Source of the DNA: Verrucomicrobiota bacterium
Lineage (GTDB): Bacteria; Verrucomicrobiota; Verrucomicrobiia; Chthoniobacterales; JAFAMB01
Assembly (NCBI GenBank): GCA_019239825.1
Contig: JAFAZK010000341.1
Span: forward strand, 31,570-95,569
Reading direction: 5' to 3'
DNA: 64,000 nt
Position numbers and translations under genes: made by a program. Position 1 is the stretch's first letter. Every line of letters starts with the position of its first letter. The notes under the pieces are model-generated. The model did no database searches. It was not told the DNA's origin and worked only from the letters and a program-made list of their open reading frames with translations. Of this stretch, positions 7,457-60,223 are shown piece by piece.

Positions 7457-7538
7457 GGCGTTTGGCGTTTGGCGTTCGGCGTTCGGCGTTTCGTGCTCGT
7501 GCTCGTGCTCGTGCTCGTGCTCGTGCTCGTGCTCGTGG
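7457..7538. repeat. Compound microsatellite: (GGCGTTY)5 followed by (TCGTGC)7-8
   Basis: Heptamers run 7457-7491 and hexamers 7491-7538. A partial reverse-complement partner CGAGCACGAGCACGAAACG lies at 7619-7637. Confidence 0.95.
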
Positions 7539-7640
7539 TCGAAAATGATTGTGACCGAGCAAACTGGTTTGGCGTCCCTCTACAACCTTAGAAATGACTT
7601 AGCTCCCACTCTGTCCGTCGAGCACGAGCACGAAACGAGG

Positions 7641-8135
7641 TTACTGCCCGTTGATCACGTATTCGTAGCGCGAGAGATAATACGGGCCAACGTCGCGGTA
7701 GCTGTGAAGGCGGAAACCGAATCGTTCATAAACAGTGCGGAGCTCCCGGCGGTCAGCCTCGCAGTCCAGACGAAGGTAAGAACGGTCTAAACCGGCAGCA
7801 TGGCTCGCCGCCCACTCCAACATCCTGCTCGAAACGCCTTGGCCCGCGAATTGGCGTCGCACGGCGATTCGATGCACGTAAGCGGCATCGTTCTCTGGGA
7901 AGTCTGGCCAGAAACGTGGGTCTTCCAATTGGAACTTAATGGTTCCGGCGGGTTCGCCGTCGTGATGGGCGAGATTGAATAGACCGGCGGCAACGTCCTG
8001 ATGAATTTGATCCGGATGGAGTTCATCATCGCGCCACATCGCGCGGCCGGTCATTCGCAGCCAGTCAGCTGCTTCTTTTAGAATGCCCGAAACAGTCGCG
8101 AGATCGGCCAGAGTCGCTTGCTTTATTACGATCAT
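7641..8135 (-). CDS. GNAT family N-acetyltransferase
   Basis: 164 aa with acetyl-CoA-binding type motif HRIAVRRQFAGQGVSSRML. Confidence 0.85.
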   Translation of the reverse strand: MIVIKQATLADLATVSGILKEAADWLRMTGRAMWRDDELHPDQIHQDVAAGLFNLAHHDGEPAGTIKFQLEDPRFWPDFPENDAAYVHRIAVRRQFAGQGVSSRMLEWAASHAAGLDRSYLRLDCEADRRELRTVYERFGFRLHSYRDVGPYYLSRYEYVINGQ

Positions 8136-8494
8136 CGTGGGTGCAGGATCAAAAAAATCTCACGCAAAGCGGACTTCCTCTGTCCTCCCATATCCCTTTA
8201 CCATGGCGGACAGGTCGCCCCATCTCCCCTCCAGCTACGTCAGCCAAGGGGCGCAAAGACGCAAAGGAATTTCGGATTGATGCGGCCGTGGACTCTTCAA
8301 TAACTAGTGGTCGGCTAGTAAGCGTTGGGACCAACACCGGGATGGGAGCCACCTTCATCCAACCTACGGTGTGACAAGACCTTATGGGACAAATAGGACT
8401 TATTAAAGCGCTCCGCAGATGACATGGCAACCGGATTTGAAACGATTTCATCGTTGCGCAGCGCCGATCCTCGTGTGAAGGGAAAGACGGGAAC

Positions 8495-8788
8495 ATGGAA
8501 GCTAAACAACAAGATAAAACTCAATCACCGGTTATCAGCTCGGGACGTCGCAGAAAAAAAGATCCAGCAGAAAATCTGTTGGCCCATCTTTCTCACGATA
8601 CCGGAGGGGTGCTTAAACTCTTGTGGTTCGCGGTCGGGTCGTTTTTGTCGTTCTTCGGAGCGGTGATGACGACCATGATACCGATGAACTCTCAGACGCG
8701 CTACCTCTGGCTCGCTTTCTGCCTAGTCACAGCCGCGGTCTCACTGGTCTTGATGATCAAGGCGCTATCGAAGCCGGTCGAAGAATAA
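8495..8788 (+). CDS. Hypothetical small membrane protein
   Basis: 97-aa ORF with two hydrophobic segments (LLWFAVGSFLSFFGAVMTTMI, LWLAFCLVTAAVSLVLMI). Weak RBS and no recognised family. Confidence 0.45.
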   Translation: MEAKQQDKTQSPVISSGRRRKKDPAENLLAHLSHDTGGVLKLLWFAVGSFLSFFGAVMTTMIPMNSQTRYLWLAFCLVTAAVSLVLMIKALSKPVEE

Positions 8789-8860
8789 ACAACTGCTTCC
8801 CCCCAGAAACTCTTTCTTTTTGCCGCTAGGCACTTAGCGGTCTAATCCTTCGGTTGTCAT

Positions 8861-8984
8861 CTTGGCCTGATCGTAGGAGTAATCAGTAATCAGTCGGTCA
8901 GTAATCAGTATTTTTGTCTTCTTCCGGATTTCAGAACTGATTACTGACACACTGATTACTGATTACTTCTACGATCAGGCCAAG
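8861..8984. repeat. Word-array palindrome (GTAATCAGT words), 49-nt arms, 26-nt loop
   Basis: The left arm 8861-8909 matches the reverse complement of 8936-8984 at 46 of 49 positions. The right arm ends 5 nt before the GNAT start codon. Confidence 0.95.
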
Positions 8985-8989
8985 ACGCA

Positions 8990-57642: not shown

Positions 57643-57648
57643 CCGCCA

Positions 57649-58932
57649 CTAACGCTCCTCGTCCACCCTCGGCAGCCGAATGATGAACGTCGCGCCCTCG
57701 CCCGGAGAACTCGCTAGCTCAACGTTTCCGCCATGGGATTGAGCCGTGTGCTTCACAATGGATAGGCCCAGGCCGGTGCCGCCGGCGTCTCGAGAGCGAT
57801 CCTTGTGGACCCGATAAAATCTCTCGAAGATATGAGGCTGATCGCTTAGCGGGATCCCTGGCCCATTATCCTTTACCTTCAGGACCACCTCCAAGGGCGT
57901 AAAATCGACCACAATCAACACCCTTGGCTCCGGTTTGCCGCCGTATTTCAAAGCGTTATCAAGCAGATTAAAAATAGCCTGCTCGATTTTGACTTGGTCT
58001 GCTTCAATAAAGGGTAGTCCCTGAGCGATTTCGGTTTGAACCACGGCGCCTGATGCCTGGATCATCGGCTCGGATTTTTCTAACACCTTCTCAATGCACG
58101 ATTGAAGCTGGAAGCGCTCCCAGTTCAGATGAGGCTCCCGAGACTCCAAGCGAGCGAGCTGCAGCAGGTCATCCACGAGTAGATTGAGCCGCTGTGCGTG
58201 TTTGTGCATGATCGCCAGAAAGCGCCGGCGGGTGGCTGCGTCCGGGCTGGACTCGATGAGCGTCTCCAGGTACCCCGTCAGAATGGAAAGTGGAGTGCGA
58301 AGTTCGTGGGAAACGTTGGCGACAAAATCCTTTCGCACGGCCTCCAGGGATCGAATCTGGGTTACGTCGTGAAAAACCACCAAGATGCCGGCTGAACCTT
58401 CTTGTTTCGGCCGGCGCAAACTAACGGAAGTGACCTGAAAATGCTTCGGAACAAACTTTTCGCCGTCTCGAATATCGACTGGGATCTCGTACTCTTGAGG
58501 TTGGTTCGTCTCGACGGTCCTCTGCGCCATTTGGTGCAGAAGATGATTGCGAAACACCTCTAAAATCGTTCGCCCCACCGGAACCCGTGAGAAGGAGAAC
58601 ATCCGCTGCAGGCGTTCGTTAACCAAGCGGACAGTAAGGTCCGAATTCGCGACCAGCACCCCTTCGCTCATGCTCCCCAAAATCGCCCGCAGGCTCAAAT
58701 CTTCGTCTGCCACCAACTGCGCCATTTCGCGTTGCCGGTGTTCGATCCGGCGGAGTTGATGATAGATTTCGCGAACCACCGCAGGCCCTTTGCCGCCCGT
58801 GCTGATGCGCGTCTCTTCAGCCAGCCGGCGGGTATCGTTGCGGATGCGGAATAGCTCACGCCACAGGATCCAGGTTGTAACCATGGATCCGCAAAGGAGG
58901 ACAGACAGAGCGATTAGCCAAGTTGAAGTCAC
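57649..58932 (-). CDS. Sensor histidine kinase (TM, PAS, HisKA, HATPase; PhoR-like)
   Basis: H-box FVANVSHELRTPL, N-box LLDNALKY, G-boxes DNGPGI and GTGLGLSIV. Confidence 0.88.
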   Translation of the reverse strand: MTSTWLIALSVLLCGSMVTTWILWRELFRIRNDTRRLAEETRISTGGKGPAVVREIYHQLRRIEHRQREMAQLVADEDLSLRAILGSMSEGVLVANSDLTVRLVNERLQRMFSFSRVPVGRTILEVFRNHLLHQMAQRTVETNQPQEYEIPVDIRDGEKFVPKHFQVTSVSLRRPKQEGSAGILVVFHDVTQIRSLEAVRKDFVANVSHELRTPLSILTGYLETLIESSPDAATRRRFLAIMHKHAQRLNLLVDDLLQLARLESREPHLNWERFQLQSCIEKVLEKSEPMIQASGAVVQTEIAQGLPFIEADQVKIEQAIFNLLDNALKYGGKPEPRVLIVVDFTPLEVVLKVKDNGPGIPLSDQPHIFERFYRVHKDRSRDAGGTGLGLSIVKHTAQSHGGNVELASSPGEGATFIIRLPRVDEER

Positions 58933-59618
58933 GGCGCCCGATTCGCCAAGAAACGATACCCTTCACCGCGGATCGTGACAATCCTATCTGCGGCTTCCCC
59001 GAGTTTTTCCCGGAGTCGCCTAATGTGGGTGTCCACCGTCCGCGTATCGATAACGTTCTCGTAGCCCCAAACATCTTGTAGCAGAGTCTGGCGTGACAGC
59101 GTGCGCCCTCGCCTTTCCAACAGGGCCACCAGCAACTTAAACTCTGTTGTGGTTAGCTCGAGGCGTTTACCGCTAACGCTGATCTCGAAGTTGTTTTTAT
59201 CGAGGCGGAATTCATCCACGGTGAGAACAGAGGCTGACTCGACCATTCGGAGTCGCCTCAATAGATTCTGGACTCGTAGAACCAATTCTCTAGGGCTGAA
59301 CGGTTTAGTAAGGTAATCATCGACCCCCAGCTCGAGACCCAGAATGCGATCGGAGATTTCCGCTTTGGCAGTAAGAATCACGACAGGGATTGTTGAGGTC
59401 TCCGTTGAGGCTCTGAGTGCTTTAAGCACTTCAATCCCCGTCATATGGGGGAGCATAATATCGAGAATGATGGCGTCAGGACGCCGCTCTTTCGCTGCGT
59501 TCAGCCCGCCCGCCCCAGTCAATGCGACGTGGACTTCAAAGCCGGAACGGTGCAAATGATAGCGTACAAGATCGACTACATCCGGCTCGTCATCTACCAC
59601 AAGGACGGTATTTCGCAT
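58929..59618 (-). CDS. OmpR/PhoB-family response regulator
   Basis: Start taken at MRNTVLVVDDEPDVV. Receiver Asp in IILDIMLP; winged-helix C-terminus ..TVDTHIRRLREKL..RGEGYRF. Confidence 0.9.
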   Translation of the reverse strand: MRNTVLVVDDEPDVVDLVRYHLHRSGFEVHVALTGAGGLNAAKERRPDAIILDIMLPHMTGIEVLKALRASTETSTIPVVILTAKAEISDRILGLELGVDDYLTKPFSPRELVLRVQNLLRRLRMVESASVLTVDEFRLDKNNFEISVSGKRLELTTTEFKLLVALLERRGRTLSRQTLLQDVWGYENVIDTRTVDTHIRRLREKLGEAADRIVTIRGEGYRFLANRAP

Positions 59619-59837
59619 GCTCGGCGGCGAGCGTAGCTCAATGGGACAAGCGCCATCAAGAAATCGTCCTAAAAAATGATCCGGGCTGCGCACGCCAAGG
59701 AGTAGAAGTCGAGAGAAATCGTGCGCAGACCCGAATCGCCTTAACCAATGATGTAGACAGGGTCCAGCGAGGAGCGTTCAAAGGTTTCTCCTTTTTTCTT
59801 GCCTTCGGGGCGATTTTTCCCTTAGCAGGCCGTTTTT

Positions 59838-59920
59838 GCTCGTGCTCGTGCTCGTGCTCGTGCTCGTGCTCGTGCTCGTGCTCGTGCTCGTGCTCGTGCT
59901 CGTGATTGGGATTGGGATTG
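59838..59920. repeat. Microsatellite (GCTCGT)11 followed by (ATTGGG)2.5
   Basis: Eleven perfect hexamers run 59838-59903, then ATTGGGATTGGGATTG. An imperfect complementary partner GACGACGACGAGTACGAG lies at 60190-60207. Confidence 0.95.
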
Positions 59921-60167
59921 CCACGCCGAACCGCCTGGAGGGGAGCCGCTTTATACGGTGGCAAGGTCTATCGGTTGGCAGCAGGCGGCTCCCGAAAACT
60001 ACACAGCGCGTGGAATTTACCCACGATGTTAGGGGCTTGCGGCCAGGAACATCCGAAAAGGCGTTAGAACAAACACCTGATAGAAACGTTCGCGGGAGCC
60101 GCCTGCAGCCACCTTATAGAGCTGCCACATCGCGAAGCGGCTCCCCTCCGGGCGCGGTTCGGCGTGG
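59921..60167. repeat. GGGAGCCGC nested-palindrome element, copy E (+ orientation, short outer spacers)
   Basis: Motif starts are 59941(+), 59985(-), 60094(+) and 60137(-). The 18-mer is at 60086. Flanks are CCACGCCGAACCGCC and GGCGCGGTTCGGCGTGG. Confidence 0.92.
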
Positions 60168-60223
60168 CACGTGACGGCTCGAATTGAGGACGACGACGAG
60201 TACGAGAAGCAATACACCGCATA

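Follow-up and report, generated by a model that had tools for sequence, protein, structure and literature searches.

Inverted arrays of heptamers near gene 3′ ends are known from Xanthomonas (Rehm 2015) and from Nostoc, where the STRR hairpins are likewise sited near gene 3′ ends (PMC2670836). In Xanthomonas the mean distance of an array is 28 nt to the ORF before it and 160 nt to the ORF after it; the arrays are scarce between divergent ORFs and vary among close species, and X. campestris pv. campestris contains 186 of them, with inverted pairs in 70 cases (PMC4692102). The palindromes described here, in a 64,000-nucleotide stretch of DNA (the window), are of one kind with the STRR hairpins and with the Xanthomonas arrays, whose inverted word is GGGAATC; what sets them apart is that a single genome employs at least eight word families. 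They are a many-worded variant of a repeat type already known from Xanthomonas and cyanobacteria. The host of the window is an uncultured soil Chthoniobacterales bacterium.

The initial annotation listed 17 intergenic loci with inverted arms composed of word arrays, and inverted arms were detected at all 17, at the coordinates given there (Table 1). The arms at these loci are 18–52 nt long with 75–100% complementarity, and TRF, which called tandem arrays independently of arm pairing, also called most of them. They are imperfect arrays, mostly with a period of 7 but also of 6 (TCGTGC), 8 (CGCAAAGG and GGCGATGG) or 9 (CACAAAGAA); those at 19.66 and 47.94 kb are only weakly array-like, and the right arm at 59.8 kb is diverged. 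Non-coding DNA constitutes 11.6% of the window yet holds 30 of the 48 TRF arrays (binomial p = 7e-17). With pairing defined as the presence, no more than 450 nt away, of an inverted partner with a score of 12 or higher, 23 of the 30 intergenic arrays are paired, whereas none has a comparably good direct partner (sign test p = 2e-7); arrays within genes of the window have neither type of partner by the same criterion. Per 100 kb, the window has ~37 paired arrays and close relatives have 36, as against 2.9 in 1.26 Mb from diverse bacteria; in this last set direct partners are about as common as inverted ones. Occurrence in unrelated phyla is sporadic. Because an independent assembly (L001) carries the same sequence and orthologous versions are present in many other metagenomes, the palindromes are not an assembly artefact. 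We judge it somewhat probable, as part of the joint explanation set out below, that they are a class of intergenic repeats, enriched in this lineage and able to form hairpins, in which long simple-sequence repeats are arranged in inverted pairs.

Table 1. Palindrome arms, unpaired arrays and nested elements in the window
Feature	Coordinates	Strand	Remarks
Unpaired TTGGCGT x5 array	7455-7491	.	Just upstream of 7487 left arm
Left arm, TCGTGC x8.5	7487..7541	.	Paired part 7487-7505
Right arm, CGAGCA x2.5	7619..7637	.	Convergent junction; perfect 19-nt complement of 7487-7505
Single copy of AAAATCTCA+CGCAAAG leader/array family	8154..8180	.	Divergent gap
Left arm, unique outer stem + GTAATCA array	8858..8909	.	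One irregular 8-nt unit; palindrome fold -86.7 kcal/mol, z = -14
Right arm	8936..8987	.	Unit-for-unit mirror of 8858..8909; start codon (8990) 2 nt beyond
Unpaired GTGAGAA array	9463..9484	+	Supplies last codons + TGA stop of gene 8990-9484; family shared with 29326
Left arm, TAAGTTT words	13167..13206	.	First TAA is stop of gene 12094-13173; two possible pairing registers with right arm, loop 3 or 23 nt
Right arm, AACTTAN words	13210..13263	.	Overlaps last codons + stop of minus-strand gene 13243-14193
Left arm, period-9 words, GACCACAAA type	14227..14269	.	
Right arm	14367..14408	.	Stop of upstream minus-strand gene (14415) 6 nt away
Left arm, TAAGTTT words	15516..15548	.	Sole occupied divergent junction; kept in relatives to ~75% identity
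Right arm	15603..15635	.	Near-invariant among relatives
Left arm, GTAG-tagged unique stem + short CGTGCT array	19659..19686	.	
Right arm	19775..19802	.	GAGCAC-type array from 19754 on
Left arm, unique stem + ATAGCCA array	21450..21487	.	Minus-strand downstream start (21442) 8 nt off
Right arm, TATTGGC x4.4	21534..21571	.	
Left arm, AGTAATC-type words	25861..25897	.	
Right arm, ACTGCTT words	25933..25959	.	
Left arm, GTGAGAA/GTGATTG words	29326..29364	.	First TGA is stop of gene 27750-29330
Nested MITE-like palindrome	29401-29668		Within ~370-nt spacer of 29326/29737 arms
Right arm, CCTCTCA x11	29737..29813	.	
Left arm, GCGAAAC/GGCGATG words	35900..35930	.	
Nested MITE-like element A	35929-36233		Spacer of 35900/36226 arms
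Right arm, CGCCGTTT words	36226..36252	.	
Left arm, AATAGCA words	45728..45753	.	
Right arm	45789..45813	.	Upstream of probable true start of cyclase gene; L162 orthologue 28 codons shorter (693 aa vs 721 aa for window ORF)
Left arm, TCGTCC-type words	47940..47961	.	Stop codon 13 nt before
Right arm, GAGGACGA type	48107..48128	.	
Left arm, TAAGTT words	50658..50675	.	
Right arm	50753..50770	.	Stop of upstream minus-strand gene (50778) 7 nt away
Left arm, AGTAATC x5	53077..53112	.	Stop codon 6 nt before
Right arm, ACTGATT words	53145..53173	.	
Left arm, unique leader AAAATCTCA + CGCAAAGG array	54254..54292	.	Stop codon 6 nt before
Right arm	54422..54460	.	Mirrors 54254..54292
Left arm, GCGAATGG/GCGATTGG/GCGAAACG words	57300..57337	.	
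Nested MITE-like element	~57340-57600		Spacer of 57300/57607 arms
Right arm	57607..57639	.	Variant units of 57300 arm in mirrored order
Left arm, perfect TGCTCG x11.3 then GATTGG x2.8	59837..59920	.	
Nested MITE-like element A, second site			Spacer of 59837/60186 arms
Right arm, GAGGACGACGACGAGTACGAG	60186..60206	.	Diverged complement, inverted score 11

The junction bias reported in the initial annotation is present in the same direction but with lower counts. Array palindromes occupy five of eight wide convergent gaps in the window (a MITE alone is present in one more), 10–11 of the 18 co-directional gaps that measure 40 nt or more, and one of eight wide divergent gaps (Fisher p = 0.04); wide convergent and co-directional gaps together are ~60% occupied. 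As also reported there, none is present at any overlapping or tight junction in the window. When hairpins of any type are counted (array, MITE, REP-like, plain or canonical) they fill ~23 of 26 gaps in the wide convergent and co-directional classes, versus two of eight divergent gaps. The usual palindrome starts 0–20 nt past a stop codon. Among 11 co-directional cases, 8 have a proximal arm that begins no more than ~20 nt from the upstream stop, and at a minimum of four sites (13171, 13243, 29328 and 9482) the array itself supplies the stop codon. The next start codon is 2–8 nt from the palindrome edge, or overlapped by it, at 8.9, 21.5 and 54.4 kb, leaving no room for a promoter, such that a strong terminator at these positions would be polar. 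Palindromes persist almost only right after stop codons; few lie in divergent promoter gaps, and none inside genes.

Comparisons with relatives show the palindromes to be labile, with word families swapped at the same junction and cassettes gained, lost and replaced fast. At junction 13174 the window has TAAGTTT words, and relatives have GTGAGAA plus a MITE, GGCGAAN plus a MITE, or a small hairpin only; junction 50561 carries TAAGTTT, AATAGCA or nothing in different genomes. The whole 199-nt element at 54.25 kb is missing from L162 and L163, in which the junction is 6 nt and 23 nt wide, respectively, and the palindrome is an insertion into a narrow gene junction. Many orthologous junctions in close relatives are without a strong hairpin, and no palindromes were found in 21 kb of the related complete genome L165; the palindromes are therefore individually dispensable and could lack function. 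One-sided and heterologous arrays are present in L091, L093 and L164. The palindrome in the 15.5 kb divergent gap is among the best conserved, with its stem kept in 10 sequences.

Orthologous arms were compared for co-variation, a point raised in the initial annotation, and the arms co-evolve: the two arms within a genome share an identity of 0.86, orthologous arms 0.73, and the within-genome value is the larger one in 31 of 36 pairs, with an ascertainment bias in that arms were preselected as best-pairing segments. Arm-to-arm identity within a genome is 81–93% while orthologous arms diverge. Variant units occur in mirrored order at 8878/8936, 29326/29763, 57300/57609 and 15516/15603, and L163 and L084 contain arms that are compound as well as mirrored, arranged as [A][B]...[B′][A′]. 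Expansions of a single arm are seen at 7491 and 59837; the latter array is a recent one-arm expansion, with TGCTCG x11.3 in the window versus a shorter, variant-bearing GTGCTC array at the same junction in L163.

The loci had been described as not alignable as copies of one element, which is true of the loops, for which no alignment between different loci was possible, and untrue of the arms. One heterogeneous array of 27 nt, GTGAGA[A/C]GTGATTGGTGAGA[A/G]GTGAGA, recurs with 0–3 substitutions at the ends of two unlinked genes and in more diverged form at a third (three substitutions in L093/L094, only a shorter form in the window), and a unique leader with its array, AAAATCTCA+CGCAAAGN, is present at 8154 and again at 54254/54460. 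Some arms are true dispersed copies. No target-site duplications were found around the elements, and no transposase linked to them. The spacers, given previously as 3–150 nt, are instead ~230–400 nt at 29.3, 35.9, 57.3 and 59.8 kb, where each holds a nested MITE-like element, and in L163 an IS630-type DDE_3 gene lies within the orthologous palindrome.

Predicted RNA folds of the simple cases range from -28 to -87 kcal/mol (z -2.3 to -14), with both strands alike. Canonical hairpin-plus-T-run sites are in no excess over shuffled sequence in the window, with only one at a gene end, and no U-tract follows the palindromes, some of which have loops of up to 100–400 nt. On the sense strand, G-U and A-C mismatches in the arms are equal in number (24:24), and there is consequently no strand-specific RNA signature and nothing that points to selection acting on a single RNA strand.

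The initial annotation proposed a role as terminators or insulators, and its full form, dedicated factor- and U-tract-independent bidirectional elements selected at each transcription-unit boundary, seems to us unlikely, although it has partial support. Siting directly past stops and at convergent junctions, depletion in divergent gaps, absence from genes and tight junctions, stable predicted folding on both strands, and complementarity maintained while words change are all consistent with it, as is the lack of excess canonical terminators. A dedicated role of this kind would nonetheless be hard to reconcile with insertion of the 54.25 kb palindrome into a 6-nt intercistronic junction, the abutment of start codons (8987/8990 and 21450/21442), the frequently empty orthologous boundaries and palindrome-free L165 segment, a best-conserved example (15.5 kb) in a divergent gap, loops to 400 nt without a U-tract, and the 24:24 mismatches. 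Moreover, Czyz et al. in 2014 reportedly saw mycobacterial RNA polymerase fail to terminate in vitro at hairpins lacking a U-tract. Rapid turnover, patchiness among relatives, sporadic presence in unrelated phyla, one-sided or heterologous arrays, symmetric mismatches, and a niche common to MITE-like and IS elements would instead suit functionless products left behind by slippage, selfish spread and template switching that generates palindromes, with post-gene siting reflecting purging from promoters and coding sequence. This too we find doubtful, given that arms match within genomes despite diverging orthologous arms, the 15.5 kb element is retained among relatives, the proximal arm sits close against the stop codon, and some hairpin, of whatever type, is present in almost all wide convergent and co-directional gaps.

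That the arrays are protein-binding sites or DNA-level signals (cruciforms, supercoiling barriers, or replication or recombination sites), with inversion reflecting dimeric or looped binding and not RNA folding, we consider highly improbable. At 15.6 kb the right arm has kept its sequence and not its pairing alone, 32 of 40 pairs (some of them from other phyla) have a 5′ arm richer in G than in C, and mismatches are strand-symmetric, all as such signals might produce; but the elements have no linked candidate protein, and the presence of at least eight unrelated word families at equivalent positions, with families exchanged at the same junction, argues against any single sequence-specific factor.

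The joint reading, to which we give somewhat better than even credence, is of lineage-enriched inverted word-array hairpins that arise by slippage and inverted copying, persist after stop codons, and probably act at mRNA 3′ ends. Words would be amplified through replication slippage, presumably the mechanism behind the observed pattern, and whole heterogeneous arms copied in inverted orientation, their match being kept by template switching or compensatory selection. Arms may then spread among loci as dispersed copies, and the centres of old palindromes may receive new palindromes, MITE-like and IS elements, generating nested mirror structures, with cassettes gained, lost and swapped quickly. 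Transcription from either side would give long stems (~-30 to -87 kcal/mol) that most probably shield or define mRNA 3′ ends against 3′-to-5′ exonucleases and hinder read-through or polarity. The proposed protection resembles that by REP/BIME elements in E. coli, which protect mRNA 3′ ends or hinder read-through or polarity. The palindromes are unlikely to be self-sufficient intrinsic terminators, and their role is probably to mark or protect transcript ends rather than classical termination.

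The window (51–57% G+C) is 88% coding by a codon-usage-guided ORF map, in which the large genes are backed by Pfam hits, and the same DNA was found in an independent ENA assembly (L001) whose gene calls match this map. Arms of array palindromes were located by an inverted-repeat scan, TRF, reading of the 17 loci, and alignment of each gap with its own reverse complement. The 17 palindromes listed in the initial annotation are real, as both the inverted-repeat scan and self-alignment of the gaps recover arms of 18–52 nt that are 75–100% complementary, and TRF independently calls most arms tandem arrays. 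Two parts of that description do not hold throughout: the spacers, given as 3–150 nt, are ~230–400 nt at four loci (29.4, 35.9, 57.3, and 59.9 kb) because a MITE-like palindrome is nested inside each, and the arms at 19.66 and 47.94 kb are weakly array-like.

TRF reports 48 arrays in the window, with the paired intergenic ones scoring 30–136 and containing 2–11 copies. Thirty of the 48 fall in the 11.6% of the sequence that is non-coding (p = 7e-17), and for 23 of these 30 an inverted partner with a score of 12 or more lies no further than 450 nt away, whereas none has a direct partner reaching that score (sign test, 2e-7). Arrays inside genes of the window have neither an inverted nor a direct partner within 450 nt. 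Per 100 kb, the window has ~37 inverted-paired arrays and close relatives have 36. The figure for 1.26 Mb of sequence drawn from 80 diverse bacteria is 2.9, and there a direct partner is as rare as an inverted one; these control loci come from a PurD search in which the best among the matches listed is ~50% identical, PurD being too conserved. When folded as RNA, the simple elements yield −28 to −87 kcal/mol (z = −2.3 to −14), with both strands similar. A search of the window against Rfam at gathering thresholds gave no family match, and no tRNA or tmRNA was found.

The word families are GTAATCA, TAAGTTT, GTGAGAA, TCGTGC, ATAGCCA, CGCAAAGG, and CACAAAGAA; short G runs are present in GGCGATGGGG only, and the words differ from a G-rich, G-quadruplex-capable unit with four or more G3 tracts. 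Variant units are mirrored in order between the arms, such that AGTAATC-AGTAATC-AGTCGGTC-AGTAATC faces its mirror at 8.9 kb, and mirrored unit order is also seen at 29.3/29.8, 57.3/57.6, and 15.5/15.6 kb. Unique outer stems flank the arrays at 8860, 19659, 21450, and 54254, and relatives have compound mirrored arms of the [GGTTCG][TCGTCC]...[GACGAG][CGTGAAC] type (L163, and L084 at the 8.9 kb junction). Arms of this construction permit more than one pairing register, with the loop at 13.2 kb being either 3 or 23 nt. Some expansions affect one arm only (TCGTGC x8.5 versus x2.5, and a perfect TGCTCG x11.3) and are recent, and copy number differs between close relatives, the x11.3 array of the window contrasting with a GTGCTC array in L163 that is shorter and contains variants. 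The 5′ arm contains more G than C in 32 of 40 pairs (27 of 35 without orthologous duplicates, p = 0.002; 7 of 10 among pairs from unrelated phyla), a count that spans the window, the relatives' loci L082–L166, and the control loci L012–L078. Pairs outside the window usually have more T than A in the 5′ arm as well.

The palindromes are placed close to gene ends. The proximal arm begins 0–20 nt past the upstream stop codon in 8 of 11 co-directional cases, and the distance from the distal arm to the next start codon is 2–140 nt. At 8.9, 21.5, and 54.4 kb the palindrome lies 2–8 nt before an annotated start or overlaps it, and there is therefore no space for a promoter. At four gene ends (13171, 13243 on the minus strand, 29328, and 9482) the stop codon, at times together with the codons that precede it, comes from the array itself. 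The idea that the words exist to provide stops in all three frames was not taken as generally valid, as by a hand tally a stop triplet is present in only about half of the 5′-arm word families and about a third of their complements; a likeness to Shine-Dalgarno sequences (GGTGA, AGGAG) is confined to a few families and was dropped.

Array palindromes fill 5 of 8 wide convergent gaps and 10–11 of 18 co-directional gaps, versus 1 of 8 divergent gaps (Fisher p = 0.04), a bias in the direction first proposed, although these counts are lower than those originally given. If any type of hairpin is counted (array, MITE-like, REP-like such as 4077–4104 and 33482–33562, plain, or canonical), ~23 of 26 wide convergent or co-directional gaps are occupied versus 2 of 8 divergent ones. 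The canonical terminator pattern (a short stem, a 3–8-nt loop, and a T-run) is not enriched, with 29, 31, and 28 hits per 20 kb versus 26, 23, and 24 in shuffles; almost all hits are within genes, and none is at the foot of a palindrome on the sense strand. The sole canonical-looking gene-end terminator (27584–27608) is 3 nt past the stop of gene 26784–27581 in a co-directional gap lacking a palindrome, and has a 5-bp stem (AACGC/GCGTT) followed by CAACGTTTTT.

Two sets of relatives were compared. A metagenome scan with a squalene-synthase-like protein yielded syntenic loci with 65–90% protein identity, and a search with an OmpA-like protein together with contig look-ups yielded loci at 92, 86, 79, 66, and 60% identity, gene calls included. 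Comparison of orthologous gaps shows one word family taking the place of another at a given junction. At junction 13174, TAAGTTT is shared by the window with L085, GTGAGAA is accompanied by a MITE in L082–L084 and L098 but not in L086, GGCGAAN is present with a MITE in L091, and L093 and L096 have just a small hairpin. At junction 50561 the window and L163 have TAAGTTT and L162 has AATAGCA, and in L164 the genes abut. Among the orthologous gaps compared, the 21.5 kb palindrome is present in the window only; at 17.8 kb the window gap is empty and the relatives contain a GTGATTG array palindrome (L097), a CTAGGAG palindrome (L094), GGAGTGAT-type arrays around a MITE (L093), or a mostly one-sided GTGATTG array (L089). 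Whole-unit indels between arms are also seen in L089.

Complete palindromes are gained and lost. The gene pair separated by a 199-nt palindrome at 54.25 kb is 6 nt apart in L162 and 23 nt apart in L163. In L163 an IS630-family element (6163–7567, encoding a 338-aa DDE_3 transposase) is located exactly in the loop of a TAAGTTT palindrome, the orthologue of window 50658–50770 (50.7 kb). The 138-nt palindrome at 15.5 kb (window 15516–15651) is present as three tandem copies in L082 (1396–1791) and as two in L083 (734–991) and L084, and repeat expansion therefore acts on the whole hairpin unit too. Occurrence among relatives is patchy: no array pair is present in 14 gaps (21 kb) of L165, a 3.0-Mb contig at 66% identity; L166 (60% identity) has three large pairs with words of its own (TAACGGG, GGTAACG, and GAGTTCG/CACGGCGAC), and scattered array pairs occur in Geobacteraceae, Nitrospirae, Methylomirabilis, and Acidobacteria loci.

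Identity between the two arms within a genome averages 0.86, versus 0.73 for orthologous arms between genomes, and is the higher in 31 of 36 comparisons, which cover retained word families only and are biased in that arms were chosen as best-pairing segments; by this check, one proposed in the initial annotation, the arms do not evolve independently. An orthologous left arm is no closer to the left arm than the orthologous right arm is. The 15.5 kb stem is kept in 10 of 10 sequences, mostly by invariance, with G-U to A-U changes (plus strand), and its covariation (25 pairs, mostly invariant, with double changes in 2) is uninformative given the sequence conservation of this element. Strand-specific RNA selection was also considered and gives no signal, as the sense strand has as many G-U as A-C mismatches (24:24).

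The loci had been thought not to be alignable as copies of one element. This is correct for the loops, whose similarity within a word family is at background level, but not for the arms. A heterogeneous 27-nt array, GTGAGA[A/C]GTGATTGGTGAGA[A/G]GTGAGA, recurs with 0–3 substitutions at unlinked gene ends, following an S41 peptidase gene in L082–L084, L086, and L098 and gene 27750–29330 in the window, and each time the first TGA of the array is the stop codon. A more diverged form is present at the end of the orthologue of 8990–9484 in L093 and L094, and the window gene itself ends in a shorter GTGAGAA array only, of which the third TGA is the stop. A leader plus array (AAAATCTCA+CGCAAAGN) is present singly at 8154 and as a pair at 54254/54460. 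These dispersed copies of the 27-nt arm and of the leader-plus-array, together with the inverted doublets, were seen in ~0.35 Mb of sequence from the lineage. Single arms have no internal dyad symmetry, being direct arrays, and are not palindromic units of the REP type. The palindromes share terminal inverted repeats, intergenic location, and nesting with MITEs, but are of variable length, and a MITE reading was rejected because the loops cannot be aligned and no target-site duplication of 3 nt or more is present at the 13 palindromes examined.

MITE-like families share gaps with the array palindromes, and several other hairpin types are also present (see table). Element A, usually nested at the centre of an array palindrome, has an outer inverted repeat CCTGGAGGGGAGCCGCTTT / AAAGCGGCTCCCCTCCAGG and an inner one GTTAAACAGGCGGCTCCCGCGAA / TTCGCGGGAGCCGCCTGTTTAAC with ~88 nt between. 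One further family has the ends AGCCGCGAAGCGGCT...CAGCCCAGGGCTG and the other GGGGCGAG.GCCTGCCGCGCCGTAGGC...CGGGAGCCTCGC, and another, GGACTCAGCCAGGGGTTTTAACCCCTGG, is carried by relatives (MITE-like families in L085, L091, L093, L095, and L098). The REP-like hairpins have the sequences GTAGGGATGAGC...GCTCATCCCTAC and GGTAGGGACGAGCTCC.GCTCGTCC, and the stem GCTCGTCC resembles the TCGTCC/TCGTGC array words, a hint that REP stems may be the source of some arrays.

Hairpin features accompanying the array palindromes (window positions; L numbers are loci of relatives)
Feature	Positions	Location or other occurrence
MITE-like element A	11690–11985; 35929–36233; 59935–60150; inner part only 41611–41747	Also L086, L091, L163
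At least two further MITE-like palindrome families	29401–29668; ~57340–57600; possible solo end ~17855–17872	
Short GTAG-tagged REP-like hairpins	4077–4104; 33482–33562; 49444–49470	Outer stem of 19659–19802; L162 gaps
Two non-repetitive perfect palindromes	18575–18615; 18721–18785	Divergent gap upstream of LysR-type gene 18779–19663

The two non-repetitive palindromes, of the CATCG.TCAC.AATGC type with 30-nt arms and a 5-nt loop, have conserved counterparts in L089, L091, L093, and L095. They resemble operators more than array elements, and the space between them contains a third hairpin, GCCGTTAGAAAGAGGC.AAGCCTCTGTTTAACGGC. A segment of ~120 nt in a convergent gap (~49520–49636) contains an 11-bp stem (GCTGGCTCGAT...ATCGAGCCAGC) plus a T-run; L162, L163, and L164 carry it almost unchanged, despite differences in the intergenic DNA on either side. 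Rfam has no match for this segment, its folding z-score is just −0.5, and it may be either a small RNA or a conserved site of protein binding.

STRR families of cyanobacteria include CCCCAGT, TTGGTCA, and CAACAGT. None of the window's words equals one of these units, and the host belongs to the Chthoniobacterales and not to the heterocystous cyanobacteria. The two are alike in being seven-base tandem units that are intergenic and hairpin-capable; words and phylum differ. In Nostoc, STRR heptamers form hairpins near gene 3′ ends or between genes such as hupS and hupL, and roles in transcript stability or termination have been proposed (PMC2670836). In X. campestris pv. campestris, Rehm et al. 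(2015) described 186 heptamer arrays of GGGAATC, which form inverted pairs in 70 cases with the G-rich array first; the Xanthomonas GGGAATC and Nostoc GGGGA(C/T)T arrays are 89–93% intergenic. The mean distance of the arrays is 28 nt to the end of the ORF upstream and 160 nt to the following ORF, and they are depleted between divergent ORFs and vary in length and sequence among close species, their function being left open by the authors (PMC4692102). The window arrays share the tandem heptamers, intergenic location, pairing of the same word on opposite strands, proximity to the 3′ end of the upstream ORF, and rarity between divergent ORFs, and the Xanthomonas pairs ('convergent orientation', PMC4692102) fit the same 5′-G polarity. 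However, the Xanthomonas and Nostoc genomes each have one G-quadruplex-capable word, whereas the window has at least eight word families, most without G-quadruplex potential, and differs further in its Verrucomicrobia host, the frequent unique outer stems, the word swaps at orthologous junctions, and the arrays that overlap and supply stop codons.

LSSRs (5–11 nt; Mrazek et al. 2007), as summarised in PMC4679880 and PMC4692102, are most commonly heptanucleotides with a sporadic distribution, and an origin by polymerase slippage has been proposed. The window arrays are likewise head-to-tail 5–11-nt units beyond chance, with copy-number variation among close relatives, but the LSSR concept is one of direct arrays, and inverted pairing, mirrored units, and stop-codon placement are outside it. 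The REP/BIME/REPIN elements of E. coli and Pseudomonas (GTAG-tagged REPs, PMC3733652) are similar as dispersed extragenic hairpins, often in inverted doublets, that are found after genes and between co-transcribed genes and are preferred IS targets, with proposed roles in mRNA 3′-end protection, termination, and supercoiling. In contrast, a REP unit is a short palindrome recognised by a RAYT transposase, whereas the window arm is a direct array and the spacers are unconserved; classical GTAG-type hairpins coexist with the arrays in the window. We found no description of such arrays for Verrucomicrobia in the literature.

The explanation that we consider best overall, and favour by a modest degree, is that these are inverted repeats of slipped words which behave like cassettes and form stable 3′ RNA stems. 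Intergenic hairpin repeats would be built from slipped short words, their arms would be held as matched inverted pairs, and the palindromes would spread and be replaced as cassettes, being tolerated, and probably useful, directly past stop codons. The likeliest activity is that of a stable 3′ RNA stem that would protect or define transcript ends and dampen read-through, as for REP/BIME. The initial annotation instead read the palindromes as dedicated, self-sufficient terminators, and they do resemble intrinsic terminators, including bidirectional ones, in having a stem-loop just past the stop codon and in folding on both strands at convergent junctions. They differ from intrinsic terminators in having low-complexity stems of 18–52 bp and loops of 3–400 nt. 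We regard this reading as unlikely, since a U-tract is lacking, some palindromes abut start codons, orthologous boundaries frequently have none, and the one at 54.25 kb is inserted into an operon-like junction.

A functionless by-product of purely neutral or selfish origin is a serious rival, albeit also an improbable one. Matching of the arms may reflect either homogenisation or compensatory selection. More doubtful still are self-propagating palindromic cassettes that would arise by hairpin-templated copying, insert preferentially at stop codons and hairpin tips, bring three-frame stops, follow the G>C polarity of the 5′ arm across phyla, and have been adopted, in lineages poor in canonical terminators, as the main bidirectional and factor-independent signal of transcript ends. 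A protein-binding or DNA-level signal seems very improbable.

The array palindromes are of a kind already known yet unexplained, inverted intergenic heptamer pairs having been on record for years in Xanthomonas and cyanobacteria without an accepted function or origin; what is new is the host lineage, the many coexisting word families, the mirrored and nested architecture, and the documented turnover. The window adds that such pairs are dense in a soil lineage of Verrucomicrobia that is both abundant and uncultured, that they are tied neither to one word nor to G-quadruplexes, and that they behave like a niche-filler with fast turnover, for which MITE-like and REP-like hairpins can substitute at gene 3′ ends. 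Public soil metagenomes contain graded relatives, and many of the projects behind them also have metatranscriptomes, such that transcript-end marking by the stems and the matching of the two arms are directly testable, and the G-rich 5′-arm rule and the stop-donating arrays provide concrete handles for study across genomes.
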